Notes: a model not told the origin generated them from the letters alone. DNA of 64,000 nt from Planctomycetaceae bacterium (GCA_046349675.1 JAXMBW010000020.1:2741-66740), one strand, 5' to 3'. Shown: positions 2,694 through 56,023, counted from the first letter of the stretch. Numbers and translations: made by a program.

Positions 2694-5600
2694 CTACGAG
2701 TAGATGATCGAGTCGGAACCACCGCCACCGACAATCGTGTCCACACCGCCGCCGCCACGCAGGATGTTGTTGCCCGAGTTCCCCGTCAGCTGATCGTTGT
2801 AGATGGAACCGGTCAGATTCTCGATCTGAGAGAGTGTGTCGACGCCAGCTCCCCCAGACGACTTATTAGTCACAAGGCTGACGATCACCACTGAACCCGC
2901 TGTGGAGTAGTTGGCCGTGTCGGAGCCTGCTCCACCGATGATGATGTCACTTCCTCCGTTGCCGGTGAGAAGGTCATCTCCGGAACCGCCCGAGAGCGTG
3001 TCATTCAGGTCTCCGCCACTGATCGTATCGTTCCCGTTTCCGCCAGTAATCGACACAGCCCAAGTGGCCCCGGTGGCATTCAGAATATTGTTATATGTCG
3101 AAGTGCTCGCGTTCACCTTTTCGAGCTGGCCAGCTGTCAGGTTCAGGTTCACCGCACCCGTGGCCCCCGAGAGGTTGGCGGTGTCTGTCCCGTTCCCGCC
3201 GATGACACTGGTGTCGAGGTTGTCAAAGACCAGCGTGTCGTTCCCCTCACCTCCGTCCAGAACATCGGCTCCAGTCCCACCGGTCAGCGAGTCGTTGCCG
3301 CCGTTGCCGACCAAACTGTCGTTGCCCGCCCCTCCATTGAGGGTGTCGTTCATGTTGCCACCGATGAGCGTATCGTTGCCATTGCTGCCCGTCAGCGACA
3401 CGGCCCATGTGGCTCCAGCGGCATTCAGAGTGTTGTTATAGCTGGAGGTTCCGACACTGGCCCTTTCGATCTGGCCAATGGTCAGATTCAGGTTCACCCC
3501 AGCTGTGGCTCCTGATACTGTCGCGGTGTCGATCCCATTGCCACCGACAACACTCGTGTCGAGGTTGTCGAAGATCAACGAGTCGTTGCCTTCCCCGCCA
3601 TCCAAGGCATCAGCCCCTGCCCCACCGACGAGGGAGTCGTTCCCACCGTTGCCGACCAGGCTGTCGTTACCGGCTCCTCCATTGAGGGTGTCATTCATAT
3701 TGCCGCCGAGGAGCGTGTCGTTGCCGTTGCTGCCTGTCAAAGACACAGCCCACGTCGCACCAGCGGCATTCAGGGTATTGTTATAGCTGGAGGTCCCGAC
3801 ACTGGCCCTTTCGATCTGGCCCAATGTGAGGTTCAGGTTCACTGCTGCGGTGGCTCCCGACACTGTCGCGGTATCGGTTCCATTGCCACCGACGACGCTC
3901 GTATCGAGGTTGTCGAAGTACAGCGAGTCGTTACCTTCCCCGCCGTCCAGGGCATCGGCTCCAGCCCCGCCGGTCAAGTTGTCGTTCCCGCCGTTGCCGA
4001 CGAGACTGTCGTCACCCGAGCCACCACTGAGGGTGTCGTTCATATTGCCGCCGATGAGCGTGTCGTTGCCGTTGCTGCCCGTCAAAGAGACAGCCCACGT
4101 CGCACCAGCTGCGTTCAGAATGTGGTTGTAACTGGAGGTTCCGACGCTGGCCTTTTCGATCTGGCCCAGAGTCAGGTTCAGGTTGACTCCCGCAGTGGCT
4201 CCCGACACTGTGGCGGTATCGGTCCCATTGCCACCGAGCACGCTCGTATCGAGGTTATCGAAGTTCAGCGTGTCGTTGCCTTCCCCACCATCCAGAACAT
4301 CCGCCCCGGTGCCGCCGGTCAAGTTATCGTTGCCGCCGTTACCGACCAGGCTGTCGTTCCCCGCCCCTCCATTGAGGGTGTCGTTCATGTTGCCGCCGAT
4401 GAGCGTGTCGTTGCCGTTACTGCCCGTCAGCGATACGGCCCATGTGGCTCCAGCGGCATTCAGAGTATTGTTGTAACTGGAGGTTCCGACACTGGCCTTT
4501 TCGATCTGGCCCAGAGTCAGATTCAGGTTGACTCCCGCAGTGGCTCCCGACACCGTCGCGGTATCGGTCCCGTTGCCCCCGATGACGCTTGTATCGAGGT
4601 TGTCGAAGTTCAGCAAGTCGTTGCCTTCTCCACCATCGAGGACATCAGCCCCTGCTCCGCCGGTGAGAGTGTCATTTCCATCGCCACCGCTGATTCGGTT
4701 CGCGTTCGAGTCACCCGTCAGGGTATCGTTAAAGCTGGAGCCGATGAGGTTCTCGACTCCCGAGATCGTGTCTGTTCCCGCCCCCACCGTGTTTTGAGCG
4801 GTCAGCGTGGCGAGCGACACTTTGACTGCGGTCGTTGCCTGAATGTAGCTCAGCGTGTCGATACCCGAGCCGCCATCGATGGTGTCATTCCCGCGGCCGC
4901 TCACGAGCGTGTCGTCCCCGTCACCACCTTGCATACTGCCGACAATCGTGGTCCCCAGCGACGAATCCAGCCGCAAGAGATCGTTCCCTCCGAGACCCAC
5001 CAGGTTCACCCGCGTCAAACTCGTCAGCAGGATACCCGTATCGGTGACGGAGTAGCCGTCATCAATCTTGACGATTCCGCCCACACTGAATACGCGGATG
5101 ATGTCGTTGCCGCCTGATCCGGTGACCGTGAGGACGCCTGAGACCACTCCCGGTGTCAGTGGCGTTGATTCAAAGGCTCCGATGTCGACGGTCCCGGTGG
5201 CGATTCGCGAATATCCGACTCCCCGCTGGTCGGTTAACAAAGCAGCATTCCCGGACGTCGGATCGACTGCAAAGGCGTTGTTCCCACGATTCAGCGCGGG
5301 GCTGTCCAGCTTAAGAGCATGAGTGGCGGTCGGGCCGCCGTTGTTCTGAAGTGGTCCAATCTTGGGGTCGAACGGAGTCGCAGCTGTGCCGACGAAATTT
5401 CCATTGGCACCAGGTGTCGTCCCCACAGTGGCTGTGAGGCCGGTTCCCAAATCAGCTCCAATGAGGCTGTAACCGACACTCACGGTCCCGGATGTCGGCG
5501 CCATGAAATCGGGAGCGGTTCCCGAATCGGTGTTGAGGGCGACAATGCTGTTGCGGATAGTCAGATTCGAGGTGTCGCCATAGATCGCACCTCCGACACT

Positions 5601-6758
5601 CGCGGTGGCTTGGTTTCCGGTCAGCGTGCTTTGGCTGATGAGGATCGCGCCGCCCGCCTGAACGAAGATGGCACCGCCGTCAGCATCGGTTCCCGTCGTC
5701 GAATTCCCCGAGAACGTGCTCTGGCTGACGGTGACACTCCCGCCATCGGAGAAGATCGCTCCGCCACTGGCGTTGTTTCCCGTCGTGGAATTCCCCGATA
5801 ACGTACTGCGTGAAACGGTCACCGAACGTTCTGATGCATAGACCGCGCCGCCTTCCGCACGCAGTCCCGACGTACTGTTGCCAGACAACGTGCTGCGATC
5901 GAGCTGGACAGCTCCGAACGAGAAGATCGCTCCTCCGCTCGAATCGTTACCGGCCGTGGAGTTCCCTGACAACGTACTCTGATAGACGTTCACATCGCCG
6001 AAGTTCGAGGCCACAGCTCCACCGCCGGCGTTGATATGGGCCGTCGAGTTCCCGCTCAGCGTTGACAGAGAAAGCGTGATCGAACCGCTGTAGGCGGCGA
6101 TCGCTCCACCGCCTGCATTGCTTCCCGTCGTCCAGTTTCCGGACAACGTCGACTCGCTGACCACCACGGGGCCGAAGTAACTCAGAATGGCACCGCCATC
6201 GGAGTCGGTCCCGGTGGTCGAGCTGGCTGTAATCTGGCTGCGCTCGATCGATAGCGTCCCCGCGGACGTGGAGCGAATGGCACCGCCTCCCTGGCTGTTC
6301 GCAGTCGTTTTTCCACGGGTGAGCGTCAGTGACTCGATGGTCACGTCGCCCGCAGTGATCCCGAAAATGCGGGAGAGATTTTGAGCATCGATGACGGTAT
6401 TCGAGGTCCCGTTCCCGGTGATCCTCAGTGAGTCCGTGATGTTCATCTGCCCCAGGCTGAGGTTGATCGTCCCGTTCAAGCCCGGAGCGAACGAAATGGT
6501 GTCAGCCCCACTCAGCCCATTCGCAGCAAGGACCGCTTCGCGCAGGGTGGTCAGTCCGTCGCCGCTGGTCGTATTGTCAGCCAGACTGTTGACGACGATC
6601 GCCGCCAGCAACGTTCGGTCTTCGAGTGCGTGTCCCCGGCTCAGGACACGTTGAGTCACCCCCGAACATTTCCGAGAACTCCCGAAGAGCGACTTCCAGG
6701 TGGACGTGACTTGCTGTTGCCAAAACCGAGCAATTCGACCACTGATTGAATTGAGCAT
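2694..6758 (-). CDS. giant secreted beta-helix / RTX-type Ca-binding repeat exoprotein (adhesin-like)
   Basis: The ORF is open to ATG 6836 (1380 aa). ATG 6758 (MLNSISGRIARFWQQQ...) is the more plausible start. It has an LEDRTLLAA motif and a TTLREAVLAAN (CSLREA-like) motif. Nine GGA[IV] beta-helix turns occupy aa 183-420. LQNNGGPTATHAL and DQRG..DIGAFE motifs follow. There are many GGxGxD nonapeptides and five 115-aa tandem units. Confidence 0.9.
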   Translation of the reverse strand: MLNSISGRIARFWQQQVTSTWKSLFGSSRKCSGVTQRVLSRGHALEDRTLLAAIVVNSLADNTTSGDGLTTLREAVLAANGLSGADTISFAPGLNGTINLSLGQMNITDSLRITGNGTSNTVIDAQNLSRIFGITAGDVTIESLTLTRGKTTANSQGGGAIRSTSAGTLSIERSQITASSTTGTDSDGGAILSYFGPVVVSESTLSGNWTTGSNAGGGAIAAYSGSITLSLSTLSGNSTAHINAGGGAVASNFGDVNVYQSTLSGNSTAGNDSSGGAIFSFGAVQLDRSTLSGNSTSGLRAEGGAVYASERSVTVSRSTLSGNSTTGNNASGGAIFSDGGSVTVSQSTFSGNSTTGTDADGGAIFVQAGGAILISQSTLTGNQATASVGGAIYGDTSNLTIRNSIVALNTDSGTAPDFMAPTSGTVSVGYSLIGADLGTGLTATVGTTPGANGNFVGTAATPFDPKIGPLQNNGGPTATHALKLDSPALNRGNNAFAVDPTSGNAALLTDQRGVGYSRIATGTVDIGAFESTPLTPGVVSGVLTVTGSGGNDIIRVFSVGGIVKIDDGYSVTDTGILLTSLTRVNLVGLGGNDLLRLDSSLGTTIVGSMQGGDGDDTLVSGRGNDTIDGGSGIDTLSYIQATTAVKVSLATLTAQNTVGAGTDTISGVENLIGSSFNDTLTGDSNANRISGGDGNDTLTGGAGADVLDGGEGNDLLNFDNLDTSVIGGNGTDTATVSGATAGVNLNLTLGQIEKASVGTSSYNNTLNAAGATWAVSLTGSNGNDTLIGGNMNDTLNGGAGNDSLVGNGGNDNLTGGTGADVLDGGEGNDTLNFDNLDTSVLGGNGTDTATVSGATAGVNLNLTLGQIEKASVGTSSYNHILNAAGATWAVSLTGSNGNDTLIGGNMNDTLSGGSGDDSLVGNGGNDNLTGGAGADALDGGEGNDSLYFDNLDTSVVGGNGTDTATVSGATAAVNLNLTLGQIERASVGTSSYNNTLNAAGATWAVSLTGSNGNDTLLGGNMNDTLNGGAGNDSLVGNGGNDSLVGGAGADALDGGEGNDSLIFDNLDTSVVGGNGIDTATVSGATAGVNLNLTIGQIERASVGTSSYNNTLNAAGATWAVSLTGSNGNDTLIGGNMNDTLNGGAGNDSLVGNGGNDSLTGGTGADVLDGGEGNDTLVFDNLDTSVIGGNGTDTANLSGATGAVNLNLTAGQLEKVNASTSTYNNILNATGATWAVSITGGNGNDTISGGDLNDTLSGGSGDDLLTGNGGSDIIIGGAGSDTANYSTAGSVVIVSLVTNKSSGGAGVDTLSQIENLTGSIYNDQLTGNSGNNILRGGGGVDTIVGGGGSDSIIYS
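2889..4613 (-). repeat. five tandem 345-bp (115-aa) coding repeats inside the exoprotein gene
   Basis: Unit starts on the minus strand are 4613, 4268, 3923, 3578 and 3233, each beginning L-x-F-D-N-L-D-T-S-V. Units 1-4 are nearly identical at protein level. Unit 5 is diverged. Confidence 0.9.
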
Positions 6759-7393
6759 CTGGGGGGCAATCCGGAAAACACAGGAGATCAGAGCCATGGG
6801 GGAGAACACCACTGTCGAGAGTGGATCAGGCTCCATGTGACTATGTTTCCTGTTTTCGATTCGTGATCGAATTACTCACCAGCCAGAAAGCCATCCATTC
6901 GTTTTTTCGGGGTACGAAGCCGGTTACGTTGTCCTGGTAAAATGATCGGACGGTGTTTAACGAAACGGTGCGACCCCGATTGCACCAGACATGCACAGTT
7001 TAATGTTCGTAGCAAGGGGGCGGGCTGCATCAGGTAGATCGATGAAGACTGGTAACGATTCACACTCTGAGCCAGATCGAAGTATCGGGAGGGGAGAGCC
7101 GGCCTCATGTGCATGCCGTCCACATGCACACCTCTCTCGCCATTGTTGGCTTCACCAGAACTGCAACCAGCTATCCAAAATAAAAACACGCAAGGGAGCT
7201 GTGGGCCGACGAACTCCCCTGCGTTTGCCAGCAACCAGGCCAGCTTCACAACTTTAGGAGGTGAACGCCTGACGAGAGGGCGAATACCCGCAAACCTCCG
7301 CAATTGCAGCCTAAACCCGCGAACGCTTGCAGCCTCCACCGCAGGCGTCACACTCAATTTGCTGGATCAACACGACGCTTAAGGTGCCCCAAT

Positions 7394-10601: not shown

Positions 10602-12726
10602 CTACCCCAACCGACCGAACTGGCGGTCGAGTTCGTTCTTTGACAGCTTCAGCGAGGTCGGGCGGCCGTGGGGGCAGTGGTGGTGGTCGTCGCAGAGGTG
10701 ACGCTGTTCGAGCAGTGAGGCGATCTCTTCGGGGGAGAGACGCTGTCCCGCTTTAATCGCAGCCTTGCACGACATCATGTGCAGGAGGCTGTCGAGCAGG
10801 TCGCGGCGGGTGATCTTTTCGTCCTGGGAATCGATCTTGTCAATCACCGACTTGAGCAGATCGGCGGGGTCAGCCCGGCGGATCAGCGTGGGGATGCCGC
10901 TCAAGGCCACCGTGTTGCCACCGAACTCCTGGACCAGCAATCCCAACTCGGCCAGCAGCTCGGTGTTGTCGAGAGCGATCGAGACCTCGCGGGGAGTCAG
11001 CTCGACGGGGATCGGGACGAGCAACCGCTGAACCTCAGCTGTCTTGTTCAGAATCCGTTCGCGCAGCTGCTCGTACATGATGCGTTCATGCAGTGCGTGC
11101 TGGTCGATAATGTGGACGCCATCGGGGGTCTCAACGACCAGATAGCAGTCGTGGACCTGCATCGCCCGCACATCCCCAGCTGCGCTGGTGGAGGGCAGTT
11201 CGGTGGCTTTGGCGGTGGCTGTGAGAGTCGGCGCTGGAAGAGATGAGAGAACCCGGCTGGCGATGGCTCGGGACCACCGGGGAATGGGCGGAACGTCGAC
11301 TCGACTCCAGGCAGAATCGGATCGCGAGGCTTTGTGGGGCGAGGGACTGGCAGGCGGAGTGGATGACCGCTCCAGAACGTGGTTCACATCGCGGGAGATA
11401 TCGATCGAGGGAAACTCGGGCTCGGGTTCGCCCGAGTCCTCGGAGAACGGGAATGGGAGTCCGCCCGCAGGGCAAAGTTCGACTCGCGCGGGCGCAGGGC
11501 GGCCCTCCGCGGGTCTCCAGTCGGCCAGCTGGGACTGGGCCCAGTTCGACAGCTCTTCCTCGACCACCAGCTGGGGCGGGGGAGCGACAGCTGAGGTCGA
11601 CTCCTGCTCGTCGAAGTGCAGATCGTGAACCGGAGCCTGTTCGAGAGTGCTGCCGAGCGTCCCCCTTCTTCCCACCGCTCGGGATGAGCCGGTCGGTATT
11701 GAGGACTCCGCCGAGGTCCATGCCCAAAAACTTCGACCGGATCGCGGAGAGGATCAACCGGAAGAGTGCGCTGCTGTCGAGGAACCGCACCTCGCTCTTC
11801 GTCGGGTGGACGTTCACATCGAAGGACTCGGGCGAGGCCTCCAGAAACAAGAACGCGACCGGTTGCCGACCAACCATCAACAGCCCACGGTAAGCCTCGT
11901 TGACAGCATGCTGCAGCGACCGGTCCTGAATCCAGCGACCATTGAGAAACAGGTACTGATGCTTGCGAGTGGTGCGCGATTGTTTCGGATGCCCGACGAA
12001 GCCCCACACGCGATTGCCATCGCGATGCATCTCAATCGGGATCAGGTCTTTCGCCAGCTCACCTCCGTAGAACAGCTCCAGCCGTTCGAGCAGCCGCTGC
12101 GTGGCGGGCAGTTCGTAGACGGTGCGGTCGTTGTGCTTGAGGGCGAGGTGCAGGTTGGGGTTCGCCAAGGCGATGCGGGTGAACTGTTCGGAGATATGGC
12201 CGAACTCAGTCGAAGGGTTCTTAAGGAACTTGCGGCGGACGGGGGTCGTGTAGAACAGCTCACGGACCTCGATCGAGGTACCGACCGGACAGCCGCAGGG
12301 GACGACAGGTTGAGCCTCGCCGCCGTCGACGACCAGCTCCGAGCCGAGGTCGGAATCGGGTTGGCGGGAGCGGATTCGCAGCTTCGAGATTTCGGCGATC
12401 GAGGCGAGAGCTTCGCCGCGAAAACCCATCGACCGGACGTGGAACAGGTCGTCAGCACTCCGCAGCTTGCTGGTCGCGTGCGGGGCGATTGCCAGTGGCA
12501 GGTCGTCGGGATGGATTCCTTCGCCGTCGTCGACGATACGGATCAGGTCAGCTCCGCCGCGCTGGATCTCGATTTCGATGTGCGTGGCCAAGGCATCGAT
12601 CGAGTTTTCCAGCAGCTCCTTGATGACACTCGCCGGACGCTCGATCACCTCTCCAGCTGCGATCTTATTGATCACGCTGTCGGAAAGCTGTTGGATTCGG
12701 GGGGCCTGATCCGTGGTGGCCGACAT
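10602..12726 (-). pseudogene. mutL: DNA mismatch repair endonuclease MutL, interrupted by a 1-nt frameshift in the linker
   Basis: The N-terminal frame (ATG 12726) carries [27 protein letters not shown]. The C-terminal frame (ending at 10602) carries DQHALHERIMYE, SCKAAIKAG and CPHGRPT. The two frames differ by one nt and swap at the G5 run (C5 on plus strand, 11661-11665). Confidence 0.85.
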
Positions 12727-12977: not shown

Positions 12978-13049
12978 TGCCTGGTAGTGTAACGGTTAGC
13001 ACTAGTGATTCTGAATCACTCAGTCGGGGTTCGAATCCCTGCCGGGCAA
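12978..13049 (+). tRNA. tRNA-Gln (anticodon CTG)
   Basis: I folded the cloverleaf by hand. The acceptor stem is TGCCTGG/CCGGGCA (U1-A72, as in bacterial tRNA-Gln). The D stem is GTGT/GCAC. The anticodon stem is AGTGA/TCACT with loop TTCTGAA. The T arm is CGGGG-TTCGAAT-CCCTG. No CCA is encoded. Confidence 0.9.
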
Positions 13050-15450: not shown

Positions 15451-16311
15451 TTGTCTGCTGTGGCCATGAAACCTTTGGATGTCTCTCGTTTTCATCAGGA
15501 CGAGGAGTTCTCGAAACTCCTCGTCGGGCGTCGAGACGTCGATCTGGTCACCGCCGCCCTCGAAATCGCTCGTGATGCCGACCCTGAACTCAGCTTCCAG
15601 CCGACTCGCGATTGGATTCAGCAACGCGCCGATCAGCTGACGTTGAAAATCGCCAGCTGTGCCGATGAGCGCGAGATGCTGGAGCAGCTCGTTCAGTGCC
15701 TGTCGGGTGAGTACGGTCTGCGGGGTGACGACGATTGCTTCTCCCGGGCCGAGAGCAGCTTCCTGCCGCAGGTCATCGCGACTCGTCGCGGCCTGCCGAT
15801 CACGTTGTCGCTGTTGTACTGTGCTGTCGCGGAACGACTCGGCATCGCTCTCCAGCTGGCACCGGCTCCGCAGCATGTCGTTTGCCGTTTGAAGACCGAC
15901 CGCGCGGTGTTGTACGTCGATCCGTTCACTGAGGGACGCGTCCTGTCCGAAGCGGAGTGCCTGGCGTGGCTCAGTGTGCGTACGCAAATCGCCCCCGAGG
16001 TCCTGCTCCCCACCTTGAAACCCGCAGCTCCCCGCGTGGTGGTCGAGCGGATGTTGCTCAACCTCAAGAATCTCTACGTCAAGCAGTCGAACTGGGCGGC
16101 ACTGTGGCCCGTGCAGTATCGCCTGACCGCATTGAACCCAACTTCGGTCGAGGCCTGTCGCGATCTAGGCATCATCGCAGCACATGCCGGGCGGCACGGA
16201 GTTGCGGTCACGTTGCTCCGAGAATGTGTCCCCCAGCTGAGCGAGCCCGACAAGACGGTGGTCATGCAGCAGATCGCCGATTCCGCCCGCAAGCTGGCGC
16301 AATGGAACTGA
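15451..16311 (+). CDS. transglutaminase-like/TPR protein (SirB1/YchA family)
   Basis: 286 aa. The RRGLPITLSLLYCAVAERLGI ... HVVCRL block is typical of the SirB1 N-terminal domain, followed by a TPR-like C-terminus. Confidence 0.6.
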   Translation: MSAVAMKPLDVSRFHQDEEFSKLLVGRRDVDLVTAALEIARDADPELSFQPTRDWIQQRADQLTLKIASCADEREMLEQLVQCLSGEYGLRGDDDCFSRAESSFLPQVIATRRGLPITLSLLYCAVAERLGIALQLAPAPQHVVCRLKTDRAVLYVDPFTEGRVLSEAECLAWLSVRTQIAPEVLLPTLKPAAPRVVVERMLLNLKNLYVKQSNWAALWPVQYRLTALNPTSVEACRDLGIIAAHAGRHGVAVTLLRECVPQLSEPDKTVVMQQIADSARKLAQWN

Positions 16312-16362
16312 GGGGGCGGAGGCTTCTGAAGCCGTTCCCAGTTCTGTCTTCATGAGCAAAAT

Positions 16363-16423
16363 GAACAGACAGGAATGTCTGTTCCACAGAACTCCACAGT
16401 GGGACACACATTCCTGTCTGTCC
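16363..16423. repeat. REP-like palindromic element, two hairpins in inverted orientation
   Basis: Hairpin 1 is GAACAGAC-AGGAAT-GTCTGTTC (16363-16384). Hairpin 2 is GGACACAC-ATTCCT-GTCTGTCC (16402-16423). The whole 61-nt unit resembles the reverse complement of 45594-45654. Confidence 0.85.
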
Positions 16424-16473
16424 GATCCGAATGCCAGCTCCGAACACGCTCTATCTGTCACCTGAGGTCGATC

Positions 16474-17466
16474 GTGAAAGACTCGGAGACGGCATCACTT
16501 CACGCTCCTCAGCTGGTCTCGCCCGCTCGCCGGGTTGAGAATCTCGTTGCGAGGTTGCTCTGCGTCGGCGTCCTTGTCGGAACGTTGATTCGCTGGCTGG
16601 GGCGCTGGCACTGGCTATGCGAGCTCACGACGCATTTTATCGTCCAGGCGACTGTTCTGGCTGCAATTGCCACGCTGTTGCTGGCCCTCCGTCGTCACTG
16701 GAAACTGGCGGGAATTACTGCCTGTTTAACACTCATCAACGCAGCGGAGTGGGTGCCATTCTTCTTGCCCGCGAGTCAGCCCGCAGTCACGTCCACGACC
16801 GGAGAACGCCTCGTCGTCGTCACGGCCAACGTCTATTCGCGAAATCGTCAGTCCGAAGACTTGTACCGCTGGCTGAAGTCGAGTCAGGCTGATGTCGTAT
16901 TCATCAGCGAGGTCGATCCCTGGTGGGCGGGGCAAATTGAGTCTTGGAAAGCGGACTGGCCGCACCAGACCGTGCTCCCACGGCCTGATAACTTCGGCCT
17001 CGCACTGATCAGCCGGCACCCCTTTGCTCAATCGGAAATAGTTTACCTTTCGAGTCTGATTCCAGCTGTCGAGTGCCAGCTCGAAACCCCGATCGGTCGC
17101 TGGTCGGTCGTCGGGCTCCATCCCCTGCCACCTGCGGGAGGAGAATACTCCCGGCTGCGAAATGAGTACTTGATCGACGCGGCGAAACACATCCAGAAAA
17201 TCCCCGCACCGAGAATCGTTCTGGGCGACCTGAACAGTTCGTCTTCGTCCCCCGTCTTCCGGGATCTGTTATCGACGACGGGGCTCAAGGACACTCGCCA
17301 AGGATTTGGCTGGCAGCCCACCTGGCCCGCGGGAAATCGCGTGTTGCAGATCCCGATCGACCACTGTCTGGTGGAGCCGAGTCTGCACGTGCTGTCTCGC
17401 GAAGTGGGCCCGGACATCGGTTCGGACCACCTGCCGGTGCGTTGCCAGCTGGGCCGCAGCCCCTGA
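16474..17466 (+). CDS. membrane-anchored endonuclease/exonuclease/phosphatase (EEP) family protein
   Basis: It ends in GSDHLPV, and the VVFISEV and LGDLN blocks are present. The ORF is open from 16375, but that part reads through the REP element. In-frame GTG 16474 has a GAGG 6 nt upstream. Confidence 0.7.
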   Translation: MKDSETASLHAPQLVSPARRVENLVARLLCVGVLVGTLIRWLGRWHWLCELTTHFIVQATVLAAIATLLLALRRHWKLAGITACLTLINAAEWVPFFLPASQPAVTSTTGERLVVVTANVYSRNRQSEDLYRWLKSSQADVVFISEVDPWWAGQIESWKADWPHQTVLPRPDNFGLALISRHPFAQSEIVYLSSLIPAVECQLETPIGRWSVVGLHPLPPAGGEYSRLRNEYLIDAAKHIQKIPAPRIVLGDLNSSSSSPVFRDLLSTTGLKDTRQGFGWQPTWPAGNRVLQIPIDHCLVEPSLHVLSREVGPDIGSDHLPVRCQLGRSP

Positions 17467-17586
17467 CCGCCCCAGAACCGGCAACGACCGCCGCTGACAG
17501 ACGGGTGAACCGCCTCCCGCCAAACCGGACTTCACCCGGCACTCGCGATTGAGTTAAAACCCCGCGTTCCAGTCAGGGAGGACGGG

Positions 17587-18318
17587 ATGGCCGCCTTTCG
17601 CGAGCATGTCATTTTCAGCAGCGGGCTCGGCGTCGTTTACGGCGTCTCGGCCTGGTACGGCTTGGGGTTCACCCCGGTCCAGGCGGCGCTGTCAGCTGTC
17701 ATGACGGGCGTTGCCGGAATGCTGCCCGATCTGGACCTCGACCATGGTCGTCCCGCACAGGAGTTGTTCGGCCTGCTGGCGGGGGTGGCTCCGCTTCTGC
17801 TGGTCGGACGTGTGCTGCAATGGCTGCATCTCCCACACGACCGCGAGATGGTCATGCTGGGTATGGTCGTTCTCTACGTACTGATCCGTTACGTGCTCTC
17901 GCGGGTGATCCCGTACCTCAGCGTTCATCGCGGGATGTTTCACAGCATTCCTGCACTGCTGATTGCCGCTGAGTTGGCATACCTGACCTATCCGACCGAT
18001 GTGATTCGGGTGAAGCTGCTGGTCGCTGCGGGCGTGGCGCTTGGTTTTTTCTCACACCTGCTGCTGGATGAGATCTACAGCGTGGAGTTGAGCGGGGTCA
18101 AAGTCGGGCTGAAGAAATCCTCAGGGACCGCTCTCAAGATGTTTGGCGAGGCATTCTTTCCCAACGTCTTCACGTTTGCCTTGGCGGGGACGCTGACTTA
18201 CGCCTCGCTGATGGACGCGGGGCTGATCCGAGACACCTCTCAGGAAGTCGTCCCCGTCCCAGCCCGCCAATCGGTCCTGCAGCAGGCCGAAGAACCGGCC
18301 AACGAAGAGCTCCGGTAA
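17587..18318 (+). CDS. membrane-bound metal-dependent hydrolase, YdjM/DUF457-like
   Basis: 243-aa polytopic protein. It has a GMLPDLDLDHG motif and later FHS and HLLLD motifs. Confidence 0.6.
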   Translation: MAAFREHVIFSSGLGVVYGVSAWYGLGFTPVQAALSAVMTGVAGMLPDLDLDHGRPAQELFGLLAGVAPLLLVGRVLQWLHLPHDREMVMLGMVVLYVLIRYVLSRVIPYLSVHRGMFHSIPALLIAAELAYLTYPTDVIRVKLLVAAGVALGFFSHLLLDEIYSVELSGVKVGLKKSSGTALKMFGEAFFPNVFTFALAGTLTYASLMDAGLIRDTSQEVVPVPARQSVLQQAEEPANEELR

Positions 18319-19296: not shown

Positions 19297-19604
19297 GTTC
19301 GGCTCTTGGCCTCGCCCAGCTGGCATCTTAGAGATGCATCACGAAACACCGGGACGCCGCACGACGTCCTACCCCCGAATCGCCGAGGCTTTTCTGGTCG
19401 GGAGAAGGATAGTTGCCCTCCGGGGCTTGGGACAGGGTGCTCGCCGGAATTTCAGTGAAAGTCAGCTGGCCTGGCAGAGGTCACGAAGTGCTTTCCGCCG
19501 ATTGCCCCGGGCGTCAACAAGGGGACTTCTCAGACGGGAGAAGAGTTCTTGCTCGCGGGATGATGTAGGTGATACGAGCAAGTTCTCCGTGCCGCTTGGG
19601 ATTT

Positions 19605-19627
19605 GGACAGACAGGAATGTCTGGTCC
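19605..19627. repeat. REP-like palindromic hairpin (single, imperfect)
   Basis: GGACAGAC-AGGAAT-GTCTGGTCC lies 33 nt downstream of the stop of the 19660 gene. Confidence 0.75.
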
Positions 19628-21882: not shown

Positions 21883-24800
21883 ATGCCAATCCATTGCGCA
21901 ATTCGACAACGTCGCCACCCGATCGGGTGGGTGTTCGTTGCTTGCGCGCTGCTGAGTCTTGTTTTCCCGCTTTCAGTAATCGGTCTCGCTCAGAGTCCGA
22001 AATCGCCCGCCATGGGATCGGCCGGAATGACTGGCGGCATGGTCCCGTCCAGTTCCTCCAACGCCAATTCTTCGGGGAATGCCGGGACCACTGGTACCAA
22101 CGAGCCGGCGCCCAAACGGGAACCGAACACTCCGGCCCCACCCGCTACGAACCCCGACGCCAAGAATCCGCCGGCAACCACGAACCGCCCCGCCTCTCGA
22201 CCAGGCGTACGCGAAAGTTCGCCGCTCGCTCCGGGTCCCCGCCTCATCGATGACGAGGGAATTCCGCCGTTCCACCTGGCCAGGCTGTCGCTGGATGGCG
22301 AGGTCTCCAATGACCGGGCGATCATCACAGCTCAGATCGATGTCGACGTGAACAGCGATGGGGAAGACGAGGGCCTGACCCGTTACCACGACGTTCCGCT
22401 ACGTCTGACTCAGGCCCACATTCTGTCCAAAGAGTATGTCGGTCCCGGGCAGGAAGGTCCGGTAGTGGATCGCCCCGTCGAAGATGGAATCGTCTGGCGG
22501 TTTACGGGCTACGGTACACACCAGCTGAAACTCAAAATGTGGGTTCCCATCCGGCAGTCACCCGCCGGGCGACAGTTGGTCTTGTCGCTGCCGACGATGC
22601 CACCGGGGTTTGATGCCCAAGTCAACCTGGCCATTCCTGGCTCTCCGATCGTGATTCGCTCGAATGGGGACCTGAGCGTCCTGTCGAATACTCACGCGGA
22701 GAATCTCAATCGCGTCTCCGCCGATGTGCGGGGCCCCCGCCTCGATATGACGTGGAGTGAACCTCCCGAGGTGCAGAACTCATTCCTGGAATCCCGAACC
22801 TCAGTCACCCTCCGACGCGATGGCGATCGGGTCATTGCCACCGCCGAGCAGGTCCTCTTCCCGGAGAACGTGGGGGTTAAAGAGGCCGAAATCAAACTGC
22901 CCGATGGGTTCGAGCTGGACGAACTGTCCGGCTCGCTGGTCAAGGGACACGAAGCGATCCCCGGGCGCAATGGCTGGCGGAAGATCAGCTTCCGCGAAAG
23001 CAGCGGGGAACGCATCGACTTGAACTGGGTGCTCTCCGCTCCGTTCCCCGTCGAGGGTGGCAAGCTCTCGATCGATGGGTGGGTGGTCTCCGACGCTCGC
23101 AGCCAGGCAGGTCGTATTCGCCTGCAGGACTTCCCCGGGTACCAGATGGTCCCTCGGCTCAGCCAGTTTGTCCGTCGGGCCACACCGAACTCGCCCCAAA
23201 CGCTGGAATCGTTCGAGTTCACCAAACAGCCGTTCCAAATTTCCTGGGACGTGCAGCGGGTGGCCTCCAAATTCTCCGCACGGCCGCACCACCTGCTGTT
23301 CATTGGAACCAGTCAGATGGTGCTCGAATCACGTTTCCGGATTCAGACCGATACCGGATCGATCGAGCAGATCGACCTCGGATGGAACACCGGTAAGGAC
23401 GAAGGGTGGCGACTCGACCCGGCCTCGGTCTCGGGGGATGTGGTCATTCCGCCCCTGGGTGATCAACTCAACCAAACCGGTCGACTCCTTGTTGGCTGGA
23501 CCACTCCGAAGTCGGGTTTGATCGATCTCAACCTGCGTTTCTTCCGTCCGATGCCATCGGGAGTGCAGTCAGCCAGCGTGAGCCTCCCTCGAATTCGCGG
23601 GGCGCGCTCCCTTTCCGCCGACTTGCTGGTTGCCGCCGAGGATCAGTATGAAGTCACGCTGACCGGTGCCAAGGGAGCCGCACTGCAGACCTCGGTCTCA
23701 GACCCCGCCCGATTGGAAGGCGTCGCCCCTGCTCTGGTCAGCCAGATCCAGAGGGCAGTCACTCTCGATCCCGACCAGGACCAGATTGAGCTGAGCTGGA
23801 ACGCCCGGGCCCGAGTCGTCGAAGCAGACGCCGAAGTCGAACTTCGCCGCGCGACCGACGGCCGAGTTCATGTTCAGCAGACGGTTCGATTCCAGTCCCG
23901 TTTTGGTCGATTGTCGTCGGTGCGGTTCCAGCTGCCAAAGTCGCTTCTGGCGTTGATTCCCGCAGGGGCAGCCAGCTCCGCGATCGGAGTCACGATCGAT
24001 GGCCAGTCGATGAAACCTCAGATCCACGACAGTGCGATAGAGACCTCTCTGAGCGAGCCGCGACTGGGCGAGATTCTCGTCACGCTCGAATACTCGCTTC
24101 CGGTCTCGACCAGTACGCCCAATTCGACCGTCGTCCCGGTACTCATGTCACTCGACACCAAGTACTCATCAATCCGCGTCCGCATCCCCGAGGGTGAAAC
24201 CCTCCGCGTCCCGCCCACAGCTGAGGGATGGCAACCGGTGCCGACCTCGCCCGACGCGACGGTTTGGGTCACTTCATCGGCGAACCAGGTGCCTGTCATT
24301 CTCGATGCCGACCAGACGACCTCGCCGCGTTTCAGCGTGGACCGCGCGTTCTACCGGACGCGTTTTGATAGTGCCGGTCGCGTGGAGGGAGTTTGCGAAC
24401 TTCACTGGAACTGGTCGGGCGATGTCCGGGGCCTGCCAATCACGTTGCCCCCGGAGAGTGAATACCTGGGCGCGATGTACAACGGCAAGAGCCTCGACGA
24501 CACCCAGGTGTTCATCGATCCGCGAAACCCCTCACAGATCCAGTTCCGCCTGCCCGCTTCGCAAGACGGATCGCGTCTGGCGGTGGCCTACCGATCGACG
24601 AAACCGGCGTCATTCTCCAATCGCGACCTGCGGACTGTACCGCTTCCGGTCCTCCCGAAGGATGTTTCCGTGGTGCGTTCGACCTGGGAACTCGAACTCC
24701 CCTCGGGCCGCCACCTCTTCATGAGCCCAGCGGCCCTCACTTCCGAGAACCAGTGGCAGCGCCGTGGTGTCCTCTGGTCGCGGACACCCACCGCGAACTA

Positions 24801-25386
24801 TGTCGCTGATCGCAATGCAGCCACAACAGAGACACGTCAACTCTTGTCTCTGTTGCAGACATCGCTCCCCGACGCGAGCCAGGTCTACGCATTCAGCAGC
24901 ATCGGTCCCATTGAGTCTCCTCGATTCCAGTCGATGTCGCGTTCGCTCGTTGTACTGGTGGGGGCGGGAATGACGCTGGCGTTGGGATTCTTGTTCTGGA
25001 ACCTGCCAATCGTCCGCAACATCCAGGCCATGTTGCTACTGGCGTTCGGGGTCAGCATCCTGAGCCTTTGGTTCCTGGAGCCGATTCAGCTGTTGTTACA
25101 GTCTGCGGTACTCGGAGCAGTTCTGGCATTGCTGGCGACCCTGATTGATGTGAAGTCGCGGCGCCCCGTGCTGAGGACATACCCTTCCACCGTCCTGCCG
25201 ATGCCGACATCCCTGCCTGGTACGCACACTGCCGGACAACCGGGGGCTGCTCCGTCTTCGCCGAATTCACCACCTGCCGAACCTGCAGCGGGACGGGGAA
25301 GTTCCGTCTCCCGCCAGCGATCTCATCCCATGACCCCGACTGCCATCTATCAACCGGGTCATTCCGAGGTGGGAAGCCCTCCATGA
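21883..25386 (+). CDS. giant membrane-anchored hypothetical protein (1167 aa)
   Basis: It has an N-terminal hydrophobic anchor (IGWVFVACALLSLVFPLSVIGLA) and an S/N/T/P low-complexity linker. A region of about 880 aa follows with no motif I recognise. Three C-terminal hydrophobic helices lie at nt 24943-25150, followed by a Pro-rich tail. Confidence 0.8.
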   Translation: MPIHCAIRQRRHPIGWVFVACALLSLVFPLSVIGLAQSPKSPAMGSAGMTGGMVPSSSSNANSSGNAGTTGTNEPAPKREPNTPAPPATNPDAKNPPATTNRPASRPGVRESSPLAPGPRLIDDEGIPPFHLARLSLDGEVSNDRAIITAQIDVDVNSDGEDEGLTRYHDVPLRLTQAHILSKEYVGPGQEGPVVDRPVEDGIVWRFTGYGTHQLKLKMWVPIRQSPAGRQLVLSLPTMPPGFDAQVNLAIPGSPIVIRSNGDLSVLSNTHAENLNRVSADVRGPRLDMTWSEPPEVQNSFLESRTSVTLRRDGDRVIATAEQVLFPENVGVKEAEIKLPDGFELDELSGSLVKGHEAIPGRNGWRKISFRESSGERIDLNWVLSAPFPVEGGKLSIDGWVVSDARSQAGRIRLQDFPGYQMVPRLSQFVRRATPNSPQTLESFEFTKQPFQISWDVQRVASKFSARPHHLLFIGTSQMVLESRFRIQTDTGSIEQIDLGWNTGKDEGWRLDPASVSGDVVIPPLGDQLNQTGRLLVGWTTPKSGLIDLNLRFFRPMPSGVQSASVSLPRIRGARSLSADLLVAAEDQYEVTLTGAKGAALQTSVSDPARLEGVAPALVSQIQRAVTLDPDQDQIELSWNARARVVEADAEVELRRATDGRVHVQQTVRFQSRFGRLSSVRFQLPKSLLALIPAGAASSAIGVTIDGQSMKPQIHDSAIETSLSEPRLGEILVTLEYSLPVSTSTPNSTVVPVLMSLDTKYSSIRVRIPEGETLRVPPTAEGWQPVPTSPDATVWVTSSANQVPVILDADQTTSPRFSVDRAFYRTRFDSAGRVEGVCELHWNWSGDVRGLPITLPPESEYLGAMYNGKSLDDTQVFIDPRNPSQIQFRLPASQDGSRLAVAYRSTKPASFSNRDLRTVPLPVLPKDVSVVRSTWELELPSGRHLFMSPAALTSENQWQRRGVLWSRTPTANYVADRNAATTETRQLLSLLQTSLPDASQVYAFSSIGPIESPRFQSMSRSLVVLVGAGMTLALGFLFWNLPIVRNIQAMLLLAFGVSILSLWFLEPIQLLLQSAVLGAVLALLATLIDVKSRRPVLRTYPSTVLPMPTSLPGTHTAGQPGAAPSSPNSPPAEPAAGRGSSVSRQRSHPMTPTAIYQPGHSEVGSPP

Positions 25387-28300
25387 CCAGCACTCGCTCG
25401 TACAGACTCGGGCGAACGCGTTGGCTGTGCTTGCTCGTGGGATTCGCCGGGCTCTGGTTATCCGCTCTGGGACTCACGGCGGCGGAACCTTCGATCCGTC
25501 TGAAGAAGATCGAACCGCCCGCCCGCTGGAATGCCCCCGAGAACATCGATCGATGGATCCGGACCACGGATGCGGACTGGCAGCGTTTCAAACATGCGTT
25601 GAGCCATGTCGGCGACAAGTCTCCGCCCCCCGGCCCAGTGGTCGTCGACGCGGTCTATCGCGCCACCTTCGATGGAACATCGCTCACTCAAGGCACGCTC
25701 GACTGGAAGGTCGACCGCATCGGCTCCACAGCTGGGTTCGTCTCATTGGGGAAAAGCTCACTCGCGGTCTCTCAACTGAACTGGCAAAACCGCGAGGCGG
25801 TTCATGGCGTTACTGCCACCGGCGAGTGGATGTTGTGGTGCGAATCCGATGAGAATCAACTGAGCGGACACTGGTCGCATCGCGGCGAGAGTAAGCTCGA
25901 CACCGTCGTTTTTCAGATGGCGCTGCCGCGTGCGCTTTCCTCGCACCTGGAGATTGCCGTCCCCGATGGATGGCGGGCCCATGTTCAGGGAACCATCGGC
26001 CCGGAAACTCCTGGCGAATTTTCCAGCGAGAAGAAGGCCTGGACATTCGAACTCGGACGTCAGCAGAAATTCCAGCTGACGCTGTCCAAACCCACCTCCA
26101 GCGACACGCCGCAAATCCTCTTGAAGGAAAGCACCGTCTATGGTCTGAACAATACAGACGACTTGATCCGGTTGCAGACCGACCTGGAGTGTACCGTCTC
26201 GGGGGCGAAGGACGCGGAACTGGTGCTGAATGTTCCCAAGCCGCTGCGCGTGCTGAATGTCCTGCTGGGGACCGAACTCCCGCTCACCTTCGTGCGAGAA
26301 CTCGGTGGCGAGGAAGACCGCATCAAAATCCCACTGCGATCACTCACTCCGGGCGAGCGAATCACTCTACGCATTCTGGGCGAGGCAACCCGCCGCTCCG
26401 ACCGCCCCTTCAGCTTGCCACGTCTGCGACCGGTCAATGCGTTGTACCAGGAAGGGAACATCCGTCTGGCTGTTTTCCGTCCGCTCGAAGTGCGTTCGGT
26501 CGAGGTCGTGGGGCTGCGACAAACCCAGCTGACCGAAGAAGAGGGTCAGGAGATCCGAGCCTACGAAGTGCTGTCCAATGCCTGCACCCTTTCGTTGCAG
26601 GTGGGTGAACCGACGGCCCTTCTGCAGGGCGAGATCCTTTTCATCGCGGATGTCCGAGGAGAGTCGCCGACCAGCCGGGTCCGTATGCGACTGTCGACCC
26701 GCGAAGGGGAGCTCTTTTCGCCACGCATGCAGATCCCCGAGGGATGGGACCTCATTACCGTCGACATGGCGGAGACCTCCGACATCGTCCCGACGGCGTG
26801 GCAGGTGACGCAAAGCCCGACCGGCGACAACCAACTCGACATCGAGCTGCGACAACCGATCCGCCCCGATCGAGACTGTACCCTGTTACTTGAGTTCAAA
26901 TCGGTGGCCCTCAAGCCCGGTGCAGCGCGACGCCTGCCGATCCCGCGACTGATCGATCCACAGACCAGTTATGTCCGAGGAGTCGTCTGGGACAACGCCC
27001 CCTGGGAGCTCGACGAATCCTCGACGGGTTCCGTCGAACTCGATGGAAACCCGGCGGATGAAGATCTGATTCAGTCGGTGAAATGGACACGTAGCGAGGA
27101 TTCGAGAGCGATCCCGACCGGAATCCGAATCACGGGGTATAACTCGCAAGTCAAAACACTGTTTCGCGCTGAGCGAACCACTTCGGCAGACCCCGCCCAA
27201 TCTGCAGGCAGTGGCGAAGTCGCGGCCGGGCCCTCGTTATTGTGTGCCAATCTGGAACTCGAAACACGGACATCGCGCGTGGGAAAGTCCCACCCGCATC
27301 GCGCACTGTTTCAGTTCACCCGTCCCACCACGCCGGGCGAGTTTCGACTGACGCTCCCCTCCGAAGGCGAACTCGCCCGCATCATTGCCGACGAGCGAGA
27401 GATCTCGTTCGTCCGACGAAGTTCCGAGATCATCCTCGACCCCGCCAGCAAGCCGTTTACGGAGTTGGTCCTGGAGTATCGAACCACCGCTTCGCCCGGC
27501 TGGATTGTGTCGCGGGATGAAGTCGTCTTCCCCCAGCTGAGTTGTTTCGTCACCGAGTTCGCGTGGCACCTCGTTCTCGATCCAGAGCGGATGCTCTATC
27601 GACTGCCATTCACAGCTGCGGTCAGCCCGCGCGAGATGCCGCAGACCTGGGAGCGATTGCTGGGACCGCTGGCCCGCCATGCGGGCGAGACCGTGTTCAA
27701 CCCGTTCTCGCGGAAGGACTGGAGCGCGCTGATCAACGGGACCACCCGAGAGGGATCGAAGACGCCGCCGCAGGACGCCTGGTTCGTCGCGTCTCACACG
27801 CCCGAACGAATCACGATGAAGACATGGAAACTCGACGTGTCTCATGGACTGGCGTGGTGTTCGTTCCTCGGATTCCTGGCAGGTGGTATCGCCTTGCGAC
27901 GCGCCCGGCGATCCTGGTTTCGTCGCAGCTGGATTTATCTGGGAGGCCTGTGGCTGGTCATCGCGGTCTTTGTTGCCGAGCCTTATGCCCCGATTGCGGG
28001 TGGAGCGTTTCTGGGGACCATTCTGGCCATCATTGTTCCGCGGCGGTTCGCAATCGGCAGCGACCTGCTGGACTCGCCCCAGCAAAGCAACCCCTCGAAA
28101 TATGGGTCGACAGCCATCATCACCGGATGCCTGCTCGCCGTGGGAGCCCACCAGTTCAGCACGGCCAGCCTCGGGCAGGAAGAGATCGAAAGCCCCGAAC
28201 TGGCCTACTTTGAAATCGAAGACCAGGGGCAAACCTTTGTCGTCTTTGACTCTGCGTTTCGCTCTCAATGGGCAGCCTGGCGGGAAGAGGAATCGGGCCC

Positions 28301-31300
28301 ATCCTGGCTGTTGAAGTCGAGCCGCTATGACGTCCAGTCCGAGGTCTCGGGACCGCCACGAATCACAGCCACATACCAGGTGACTGTCTTCGGAGATGTC
28401 GTGCCAACGCTGCTCAAACTTCCATTGAGCGGTGTCTCGCTGGATCAGGTCGAGGGGTTGATCGATGGCCAGACTGTTCGTCTGATCCCCGCTGCCGACC
28501 GACTCGGATTTCTGCTTCCGGTGAACAGCGACAGAGGCGACAAGCTGCCGGCCCCGCCCCCCGCAGCCCGTCCAACCACGGGCCCTCGCCCCGTGACGAA
28601 CCGAACCATCGTCCTCAAGTTCCGCCCTCTCCCCGAGGCCCTCAATGACGACCAAAGCCGGTTCTCGGCTTCGATTCCTCCGCTCCCCGAATCCACCGTC
28701 GTATTCCAATCGGGCCGTTGGCGACTCGGTAGCGACTCGTCCGACACATCCACATCGGGGAACTCAGCATCACCTCGCACGGTTGAACTCGGACCAGCGA
28801 GCCAGCTGAATCTGCAGACAGGCCCCCCCTCTCTCTTGCCGGTCGACAATGTCTCGGACGTACAGCTTCGGACACTGATTGAATGCGGCCCCTTGGGCGC
28901 GAAGCTACAAATTGCAGCCCTCCCCGTCATGACGGATTCGCTTTCGCCAGCAGAGGTCACGCTGGTTCTTCCCTCCGGCATCTTCATTCAATCGCTGTCC
29001 GGTCCGTCGCTCGACCAGTCCAAAGTCAACTACTCCGCCAAGGACACGCGAGTCACTCTACGTCTGCGGCCTTCACGATTCGAGGATGCAATCCCAGTCG
29101 TGATCAGTGCATTTATGCCCATCCGCGAGCAGGGATTTCAGTTTCTACCGCCACGTTGGAAGCCTCACCGCGGCAATCCAACGTCCACGACGGAACCTGA
29201 TTCAGAATTCACGCCCGACTCCCGATTGGAGAAGTCGTTTGTCGGAGTGGTCGCCAAACCCGGGTTCCGAATCACCGATACCTCGAACCGACTCACGATC
29301 GTCCCCGTGTCTCCCCAGGCATTCTCCGACTCCCTGTTCACGAGTCTCGACTGGCAGACGCCCGATCTCGCCTGGACCTGCCGGGATGCAAATGGCCCGT
29401 CCTGGACGATCGACGCGACTCCCAGTGTCAGCCGAGGCTCCCTGGTGCAGACGATCACTCTCAAGGTGCCGCAATCCGACTGGCGGTTGGAGGCGGGAAT
29501 CACCACAGCTCAGGGTGTTCCCTTCGAGCATGTCTTCAAAATCGATCGTCGGATCGACATTCATCGGGCCACGGTTCAGCAGGATGGTGCCGATCGCCTC
29601 CTGCACTGGACACGAATTGGCGACGAGTTGCGACTCAGCATTCGCGACGGCCAGCCCGGAACACAAACAGTCGTCATCGACGGATCGATCGCTCAGGGCG
29701 GTGGCGCATGGGAGCCCCCCGCCTGTGATTATCTATCGGGGCAGACGATCGAATCTTCGGTCATTGTGCGTAACTCGTCGCGCGTGACATCGACCCTCCG
29801 CTGGGCAGACTCGACGACCCGCCTGCGTCCCAACCTCGAGCAGTCGGACGAAGAGGTCCGCTATCGACCCGGAACGCCGACGGCTCCGTTGAACATCCGT
29901 GTCGAACCCGTGGCGGAAGAACGCTCCGCGCGAGTCTGGGTGGATCTGGTGCCGCAACGGGACCGTCCCTGGCAGGTCACACTCCGGCTTCAGTTAAAAG
30001 ACAACCTGCCCTTCGCGACCTCCGTGCGAATTATCTGGGACCAGCCGGGACTCACCGATTTGCACATGATGAATTCGCGAGAGATCGCGTCCGGCAAGGG
30101 ACTCACCTGGCGACCACAAACGCTCGCTTCCAAGCCCGCTGAACTGACCCTCTCAGCTGCCATTGATGAAAACACTGTTCGCAGCCAGCCGATCCGCCTG
30201 CCACAGTTTTCGGGGATCGCCTGTTCAGAGATCTGGGTCTCGCTGCCGCGAGGTTCGGGATATCGCCCCATTCGATCGAGCTCTTCGCTTCTTCCGGCCG
30301 CTCCCACGAACTGGCCCGCGATATGGACCGAGAACCTGACCAACGCTCGGGAGGATTTGTATGCCTGTTCCAATCAGGAGCTGACGATCGAAGCCACCTC
30401 CAGCGAACCAATCGTGCGTCCCGTCCGGGCGGAAACGCTGATCTGGATGGACGGAGGAATCGACCCCGCCTCGGATGGATGCACGGGGATCACGAAGTAC
30501 CTGATGATCGCCGAGCGGGAGACCTCGCTCGAGATTCCCAAAGAGGTCCGAACCTTTATCCGAGCCATTGCAGTCGACGGACATACGCAACCCGTCGAGT
30601 CGCACATCCGCATCCCCTCTCGCACCAATGACCTGTCCCACGAGATCGTTGTCTGGTGGCAATCCGAGGGGCCACCACCCGAAACCATGTCCCGCGATCT
30701 GATCCGCCTGCCGGGCTCAATCCCATTCCCTCACTGGATCGGCGTCGTGCCCCCCCACCAGCAAGTTCTGCTCGACCTGTGGGGCAACCGAACCTCCCTG
30801 CTCAGCGAGTTCTGGCTCGATCGGGCCGAGTCGATCCTGAAGGCCGCCGGAGAATTTCAGGGAGCCCCCTGGTCAGTCGACGGTCCTCTGCTCCACCAGT
30901 TGGCTGACAGCCGGGACGAGTTAAGCCGGGTGACCGAGTTGTCGAAAGAAGAACATAGCCGGAACGAAGTCATCAACTTTAAGTGGAATGCTTTCTCTCA
31001 AACCGGGAGCAGCATTACCGCGCCCCCCGTTCGTGACACCGGGGAGACTCACTTTTCCGGGCTCGATGCGATTCTGGCCCTCTGTGGTGAATCGCGTTCG
31101 CTCTGGCTCAGCTCCGACAAGTATCCCTACAGCGGTCCACGCCTGCTCGATCGACACTGGGCGATCACGATCACTGCAGCTCTGGCCTCGCTGGTGTCTC
31201 TGCTGTTGCTGACATGGATTGTCAGTATTTTCCGGCGACTCGATGTCGCCGAAAAGTTGGCGGCACATCCATACTCGGCGATGGTGGGGCTGGGAATCGT

Positions 31301-45494: not shown

Positions 45495-45593
45495 AGTGAG
45501 GCCCTCGATGACTGTACTGTATTCCAGGGAGAATCGATTTGCTGTCGACGACTGCAGGCAGCCTAGACGTGTTCAGACTTCCTCTTCAGATTC

Positions 45594-45654
45594 GGACAGA
45601 CAGGAATGTCTGTCCCACTTCGGAATTCCATGCAACAGACATGCCAGTCTGTTC
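45594..45654. repeat. REP-like palindromic element, two hairpins
   Basis: Hairpin 1 is GGACAGAC-AGGAAT-GTCTGTCC (45594-45615, perfect 8-bp stem). Hairpin 2 is AACAGAC-ATGCCA-GTCTGTT (45635-45654). The element lies 32 nt downstream of the stop at 45686. Confidence 0.85.
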
Positions 45655-56001: not shown

Positions 56002-56023
56002 GGACAGACAGGAATGTCTGTCC
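56002..56023. repeat. REP-like palindromic hairpin
   Basis: GGACAGAC-AGGAAT-GTCTGTCC is a perfect copy. It lies between the convergent stops at 55944 and 56088. Confidence 0.85.

Follow-up and report, generated by a model that had tools for sequence, protein, structure and literature searches.

A split mutL gene with five clustered linker indels in an uncultured Planctomycetaceae bacterium, probably a local assembly defect in an ordinary MutL

Introduction

Endonuclease-type MutL proteins, which act independently of MutH in bacteria such as Bacillus subtilis and Aquifex, combine an ATPase/transducer region with a long linker and a C-terminal region carrying the MutL_C motifs. Repair is lost when the linkers of MutL-family proteins are shortened or scrambled, or when a conserved linker motif is destroyed (PMC6393296, PMC6902014, PMC10325900), and the last of these reports concerns the ConMot of the MLH1 linker.

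Natural alleles that abolish mismatch repair (MMR) include mutS and mutL frameshifts in clinical and experimental populations, and mutL is a classic target of natural inactivation under second-order selection (reviewed in PMC8875331). Such frameshifts raise the frequency of transitions and of homopolymer indels, the latter being a hallmark of MMR loss (PMC8875331). Reversible inactivation is also known. In Salmonella and Escherichia coli, slipped-strand mispairing changes the copy number of a 6-bp tandem repeat in mutL and turns MMR on or off (PMC2955026). Apparent frameshifts may also arise as consensus or assembly errors, such as the indels of long-read data. Read misalignment can leave indels in a collapsed consensus, and places where allelic variants cluster are among those affected (PMC8445201); other errors fragment genes (PMC12007338).

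The mutL gene described here lies in a 64,000-nucleotide stretch of Planctomycetaceae DNA (GCA_046349675.1, JAXMBW010000020.1:2741-66740), hereafter called the window, in which all positions are counted from the first letter. It shares the ATPase/transducer region, the long linker and the MutL_C motifs with the endonuclease-type proteins, and its length and gene order match those of its 708-aa orthologues in sister species. It differs from the endonuclease-type genes in that, as assembled, it is not one open reading frame and carries five indels in its linker. A preliminary description had placed a frame change exactly at a G5 run and proposed that removal of one G would restore a single 707-aa protein. 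It offered three interpretations: a mismatch-repair mutator, a reversible slippage switch, or an assembly or homopolymer error.

Results

The gene runs on the minus strand from an ATG at 12726 to a stop codon at 10604-10602. As the preliminary description had stated, the gene changes frame between its ATPase part (12726-11662) and its endonuclease part (to 10602), which ORF calls, Pfam matches and a stop-codon scan all bore out. The N-terminal ORF matched PF13589 (HATPase_c_3, 3.7e-11), PF02518 and PF01119 (DNA_mis_repair, 4.5e-36), and thus contains the GHKL ATPase and transducer domains of an endonuclease-type MutL. Its sensible portion (11662-12726, minus strand) extends through the start of the linker to ...IPSGGKKG and is 95% identical to relatives, with zero indels. 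The C-terminal ORF matched MutL_C (PF08676, 7.2e-42). Its translation holds every motif previously listed for it, namely DQHALHERIMYE, SCK and CPHGRPT, in agreement with the signature DQHA(X)2E(X)4E, ACR/SCK and C(P/N)HGRP; DQHALHERIMYE, SCK and CPHGRP are invariant in the alignment, and QRLLVP, a clamp motif of the QxxLxP type, is present as well. What sets the assembled gene apart from the class is that its two halves are not joined in one polypeptide through the linker.

The N frame meets its first stop codon at 11133, and the C frame has none from 11753 onwards, so that stop codons confine the frame switch to 11753-11133. The GC3 signal changes frame at about 11700-11620, and conserved residues (...DRLIP in the N frame and GTLGSTLEQ... 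in the C frame) narrow the switch to about 11679-11661. Nucleotide alignments show a hypervariable junction here (11661-11679, minus strand), which includes the coding-strand G5 at 11665-11661. The earlier placement of the switch exactly at the G5 is plausible, and what the data establish is the interval around it. Past the junction, the N ORF continues out of frame for 176 codons (11131-11661, minus strand) as an Arg/Ser/Pro-rich sequence that ends at a stop codon at 11133-11131, while the other frame remains sensible; both observations had been made before, and both held in translation and in the alignment with relatives. As a protein query, the out-of-frame tail matched no other protein. 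Exact protein look-ups showed that the deposited NCBI record, a contig of 78,140 nt, annotates mutL as two products, one of 531 aa that includes this tail and one of 186 aa (P0270). The second corresponds to the C-terminal endonuclease/dimerisation domain (10602-11162, minus strand) and starts at the internal ATG of MQVHDCY. A tRNA gene (12978-13049, plus strand; Rfam RF00005, 60 bits) lies between mutL and a PDZ-domain gene.

Four intact relatives served as the comparison set for indels: the contig L098 and representatives of three sister species (L001, L005 and L007). L098 (SRR29844863, 42 kb) is 97.15% identical to the window over 17.7 kb and is therefore assigned to the same species; its mutL is one 708-aa ORF. 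Alignment with orthologues, which the preliminary description had proposed as a check, confirmed that the gene is split relative to its intact relatives and uncovered four further indels. In total, the nucleotide alignment shows five indels, all of them within 0.43 kb of linker, while the rest of the gene has zero. They are a deletion of 2 nt at the junction, single-base insertions at about 11493 and about 11345, and single-base deletions at about 11451 and about 11267. At all five sites L098 has the same state as the other relatives. Four of the five form two compensating +1/-1 pairs, 42 and 78 nt apart. The first pair bounds shifted segment 1 (11452-11493, minus strand), its deletion falling just after 11451, and the second bounds shifted segment 2 (11268-11345, minus strand), its deletion falling just after 11267. 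Within both segments the third frame of the window still encodes the peptides of the relatives, including the invariant motif FRPFPGGP in segment 2. The linker between the junction and segment 1 (11494-11660, minus strand) is in the C frame; protein alignment reveals two clade-conserved motifs in it, and its window-specific changes are 2 synonymous to 1 nonsynonymous. Three of the four single-base indels lie at positions that are polymorphic among relatives, an observation given zero weight because gap placement is ambiguous.

Deletion of one G does yield the open frame of 707 codons that had been predicted. Since there are five indels in 430 nt and not one slip, this repair does not recover the native protein. 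Intact orthologues, which are 708-709 aa long, are 91-92% identical to the one-G-deleted product, which leaves all 13 aligned relatives in two further linker stretches and then rejoins them. The compensated pairs put 14 and 26 of its residues out of frame, and the pair around segment 2 removes a linker motif that is invariant in 18 of 18 close relatives. Read in the ancestral frame, by comparison, the protein is 96.5-97.5% identical to relatives, as against 92% for the one-G-deleted product.

At the junction itself the window is 2 nt shorter than each intact relative, and 15 of 15 close relatives keep the length of 708/709 aa. The codons of L098 read GGT GCG AAC GCC GGG GGC ACG and those of the window GGT GGG AAG AAG GGG G-- ACG, so that over 15 nt the two differ by about 5 substitutions and by 2 nt of length, and L098 carries its own in-frame G5. 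The junction is a hypervariable patch and not a clean G4/G5 polymorphism, and the loss of two bases from such a 15-nt patch accounts for the frame change no less well than a single surplus G.

These comparisons bear on the idea that the G5 is a contingency tract, or a site of programmed +1/-2 ribosomal frameshifting or transcriptional slippage, from which full-length MutL would still be made. The frame change does occur at or beside the G5, within a purine-rich stretch (GGGAAGAAGGGGG), and purifying selection acts on both halves of the gene. Yet the arrangement is not conserved, mutL being in a single frame at 95 of 96 related loci and in 15 of 15 close relatives. The zero frame has no early stop, the N frame staying open for 530 nt, and neither a known slippery motif nor an Rfam element was found at the site. 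Five is a short run, and the window has 22 longer runs of G or C that are stable. Even a perfect shift at the G5 would leave two segments out of frame. The proposed reversible slippage switch likewise finds no footing in a 5-nt run that is absent from the sister species and whose flanks differ by about 5 substitutions within the species. The enterobacterial mutL switches, which share with it the idea of on/off control of MMR by slipped-strand mispairing, consist of conserved tandem repeats with in-frame units in the ATPase domain, whereas the window has an unconserved G5 in a hypervariable patch. We consider switching or recoding at the G5 so improbable as to be nearly negligible. A search of JGI metagenomes with a DNA pattern allowing any G-run length at the site gave no match.

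Among about 100 loci, only two other split mutL genes were found, L061 and L103. Both are assembly products, and both breaks lie where this linker ends. In L061, which is a MAG from long reads, a +2/-1 change affects a (CG)n tract just before the ATG of MQVHDCY (L061 positions 11360-11375), and L103 has a 10-N scaffold gap (L103 positions about 724-733) at the place of the L061 defect. An apparently split mutL in L059 and L092 proved to be a quirk of tblastn reporting.

Substitution patterns show that the gene has evolved as an intact one. On the window branch relative to the three sister species, the N-terminal domain accumulated 39-41 synonymous to 1-4 nonsynonymous changes and the C-terminal domain 12-13 to 0. 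For the time after the window and L098 diverged (the terminal branch), the counts are 19:1 and 6:0 (25:1 in total); the intact L098 gene has 17:3 and 11:3 on its own branch. The linker, read in the ancestral frame, shows 9 synonymous and 4 nonsynonymous changes on the terminal branch, with 10 of the 13 at third positions, and within the shifted segments 5 of 5 window-specific substitutions fall on ancestral-frame third positions (p ~0.004). The third-position pattern and the purifying selection together indicate that a single ancestral frame was in use essentially until the present. On these counts each indel is either extremely young or not real, and any non-functional phase would have lasted at most about 6% of an already short terminal branch. 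Old evolution of the linker by compensated frameshifts was rejected on the basis of the third-position test and of L098.

The paired indels could also be seen as marks of a self-healing mutator switch, in which a frameshift in the linker, whose sequence tolerates change, turns repair off, a burst of indels follows, and a nearby compensating frameshift turns repair on again and leaves a paired-indel scar. The window would then come from a free-living planctomycete and show two recently healed scars and one live 'off' state. This would account for two exactly compensated +1/-1 pairs and one uncompensated event, all in the linker, and reversible, repeat-mediated switching of mutL is known in Salmonella and E. 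coli (PMC2955026). However, the 'healed' segments have substitutions at ancestral-frame third positions only and can therefore have been translated in the shifted frame for a negligible time at most. Moreover, the segment 2 pair destroys the motif conserved in all 18 close relatives, and no scars are seen in L001, L005, L007, L098 or 15 full-length proteins despite far more evolutionary time. Such a cycle is very unlikely.

If the split were real, the strain had been expected to be a mutator. A long-standing mutator is excluded by the ratio of 25 synonymous to 1 nonsynonymous change, and a very recent null allele is possible. The proposed search for a mutator signature, an excess of transitions or indels relative to sisters, revealed none in neighbouring genes or in intergenic DNA on the window branch. 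The transition/transversion ratio is 2.02 on the window branch and 2.19 on the sister branch, and in about 1.5 kb of intergenic DNA each lineage has 4 lineage-specific 1-bp indels. This test relies on older-branch counts and on only 3.5 kb of same-strain sequence (4 window-derived transitions), and a very recent mutator would leave too little signal in it. We also derived an expected indel count from the 1-bp intergenic rate of this lineage. Over the whole older branch, about 0.3-1.2 indels are expected in 0.43 kb, and 5 were observed (Poisson p = 1e-5 to 7e-3). A mutator-rate model, in turn, predicts about 20 extra indels in 2.1 kb of intergenic DNA relative to L098, where 4-9 were seen in all; the direct comparison of the window with L098 gives 9 single-base gaps in these 2.1 kb. 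A long-standing pseudogene or mutator was thus rejected on dN/dS, Ts/Tv and intergenic indel counts.

Two contigs come from the same strain as the window. L100 (SRR22840551) is 100% identical to it over 1,554 nt and L097 (SRR26348422) is 99.7% identical over 1,984 nt, with 0 gaps; both stop short of mutL, and neither spans the indel site. L097 and the window differ at 6 positions, of which 4 are window-derived synonymous transitions (14535, 14553, 14562 and 14781) and 1 is L097-derived. Three of the four lie within 28 nt; the pattern is a weak hint either of recombination over a small tract or of a slight bias towards transitions. Searches for the same allele returned relatives of at best 92% identity among species-representative genomes and 80% among JGI metagenome loci. 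A linker-only query of the protein collection gave no same-species fragments, exact look-ups of conceptual repaired MutL proteins gave no match, and the literature on the run accessions of the related contigs yielded nothing.

The sequence around mutL is clean. At least 13 neighbouring proteins of relatives map to the window at full length in a single frame, and 12 neighbouring genes (15.6 kb) compared at the DNA level with sister species have zero indels of a length other than a multiple of three. Relative to L098, mutL is the sole coding region with indels, 11 other genes (13.4 kb) having zero. The other long ORFs in the 64 kb, including those of 1058, 1167, 1380 and 2016 aa, are all intact, and the single overlapping pair of same-strand ORFs is rpsD followed by a CLC channel gene. 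The window contains 121 G/C runs of at least 5 and 22 of at least 6, and none disrupts a gene. The sole irregularity in the neighbourhood concerns an RTX-repeat gene, in whose 5' leader the relatives are not uniform either. Generally poor assembly was rejected on the strength of the clean neighbouring genes and long ORFs. The GC content of the linker is at the 99th percentile, and three equally GC-rich stretches are free of errors, which leaves a GC-driven coverage dropout unsupported as a cause.

Several features of the window were recorded in passing. The RTX/HemolysinCabind repeat protein (1380 aa; 2694-6836, minus strand) has internal tandem repeats of about 345 nt, and its leader (about 6780-6900) shows single-base indels among all relatives, so that the start is uncertain. 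Two ORFs of 1167 and 2016 aa (21883-25386 and 25383-31433, plus strand) with an overlapping stop have no Pfam match and are conserved in L098.

Discussion

We favour the view, to which we give a probability of roughly 55%, that the break in mutL is a local cluster of consensus or assembly errors. According to this reading, the uncultured Planctomycetaceae species would have an ordinary, intact and functional 708-aa endonuclease-type MutL, and a linker patch of about 430 nt would be represented by a consensus with five small length errors (-2, +1, -1, +1, -1) that originated in assembly or polishing and not in the cell. Misaligned reads from differing co-assembled strains may have put indels into a collapsed consensus, a documented route (PMC8445201); alternatively, the patch may be one of low coverage that was left unpolished. 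Misalignment specifically against an L098-type strain is unsupported, the indels lying outside SNP-dense patches except at the junction.

The five indels are private to this sequence, their surroundings are clean, and the DNA is under purifying selection in a single ancestral frame. This combination, small indels found in one assembly only within a gene that evolves as intact, is also that of consensus-error frameshifts (PMC8445201, PMC12007338). One technical cause is simpler than five independent mutations, which favours an artefact, and the two other split mutL genes, L061 and L103, are assembly products too. Runs of only 2-5 nt are affected by the indels, and 22 G/C runs of at least 6 are undisturbed, so that the cause depends on location and not on run length. 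Of the earlier proposal of an assembly or homopolymer error, then, the first part is favoured, and the second does not agree with the presence of five indels. The window differs from typical consensus errors in that its errors are neither contig-wide nor tied to long homopolymers, and the technical route is one that we infer.

Several observations argue against an artefact. The remaining assembly is very clean, as judged by the 100% and 99.7% matches to independent same-strain contigs, and other, equally GC-rich stretches contain no errors. If the assembly were a de Bruijn one made purely from short reads, false indels clustered like this would be very uncommon. Two exact compensations are expected under selection, and random errors would give them only about 25-37% of the time. 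Finally, apart from the one at the junction, the indels do not lie in patches especially dense in SNPs relative to L098.

The same observations leave room for a reading that we regard as possible, though doubtful: the assembled sequence is right, and the strain has a mutL null allele of very recent origin, so that its mismatch repair would fail and it would be a mutator. All five lesions would then date from a very brief period, perhaps as the outcome of a single tract of error-prone repair or of rapid successive events in a clone deficient in repair. Apart from the cleanness of the assembly everywhere else, longer homopolymers included, this reading is favoured by the standing of mutL as a common natural target (PMC8875331) and by the need for an intact linker in MutL function (PMC6393296, PMC6902014, PMC10325900). 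It also agrees with the mosaic divergence of the gene. Between the two same-species strains, divergence is highest in the mutL body (6.3% against 1.3-4.1% in other genes) and has sharp boundaries, a pattern expected where MMR alleles are lost and then replaced. The window- and L097-derived changes (4 against 1, the 4 all transitions) point weakly in the same direction. On the other hand, a null allele would require five independent rare events in 430 nt with none in the remaining 1.7 kb (p ~2e-4 if neutral), and no such indels occur in 13-15 kb of neighbouring genes. Neither the neutral nor the mutator indel rate obtained from the intergenic DNA of the lineage matches the pattern. Transitions and indels are not in excess on the window branch (Ts/Tv 2.02 against 2.19; 1-bp intergenic indels 4 against 4), and dN/dS shows no relaxation. 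Error-prone polymerases would also have left substitutions, and there is no substitution excess in the tract. Natural null alleles resemble the allele of the window in that a mutL frameshift would likewise abolish repair and raise transitions and homopolymer indels, and differ from it in that the window has no detectable mutator footprint and has a five-indel cluster in place of a single hit.

If the sequence were true, the cell would make a truncated ATPase ending in 176 nonsense residues and at most, besides this, the 186-aa endonuclease domain as a free protein. As the ATPase would be untethered from the endonuclease, the strain would be a repair-null mutator, a natural mutL-null strain caught very soon after the event and with an unusual, clustered lesion. 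It would have moderate relevance to the origin of mutators in environmental bacteria. Present evidence does not justify annotating this mutL as a pseudogene or calling the organism a natural mutator. With a local consensus defect as the favoured reading, the gene is probably ordinary and its lesion extraordinary-looking but technical. That an ORF closes upon deletion of one base does not prove that one homopolymer error is all that is wrong; here, four more indels, hidden by their mutual compensation of frame, came to light once near relatives were compared.

The linker of this clade has features of its own. The supposedly disordered region at 11170-11660 contains clade-invariant motifs, and a looser form, F[RKQ]x[FY]P, of the invariant linker motif occurs in 11 more distant relatives. 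These motifs may be analogous to the ConMot idea of MLH1 (PMC10325900): in both cases the linker has invariant motifs, and one of those of the window clade is destroyed in the reading of the window. The planctomycete motifs have no sequence similarity to ConMot, and their function is putative.

The comparison with L098 also shows how the surroundings of mutL vary within the species. Over the mutL body (window 10800-12600, L098 3200-5000) the two differ by 6.3%, other genes by 1.3-4.1%, and the divergence falls abruptly at both ends of the gene. From the sequence comparison, this sharp-edged divergence looks like allele replacement by recombination, the mosaic pattern of MMR genes. DUF1501 and mutL are only 196 nt apart in the window, whereas in L098 three additional genes separate them, coding for proteins of 237 aa, 324 aa (with N_methyl/SBP_bac_10) and 131 aa.

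Further rearrangements are seen in relation to the sister species. In one of them (L005/L006), the Transglut-ExoEndo-YdjM block is inverted relative to window 15460-18318, and the place downstream of mutL is taken by a TIR-domain gene instead of DUF1501. The intergenic DNA of the window also contains several copies of a short REP-like palindrome (ACAGACAGGAATGTCTGT), at 16365-16425, 19600-19623, 45589-45654 and 56002-56028, and two of the copies lie inside window-specific insertions of 125-134 nt that are absent from the sister species.
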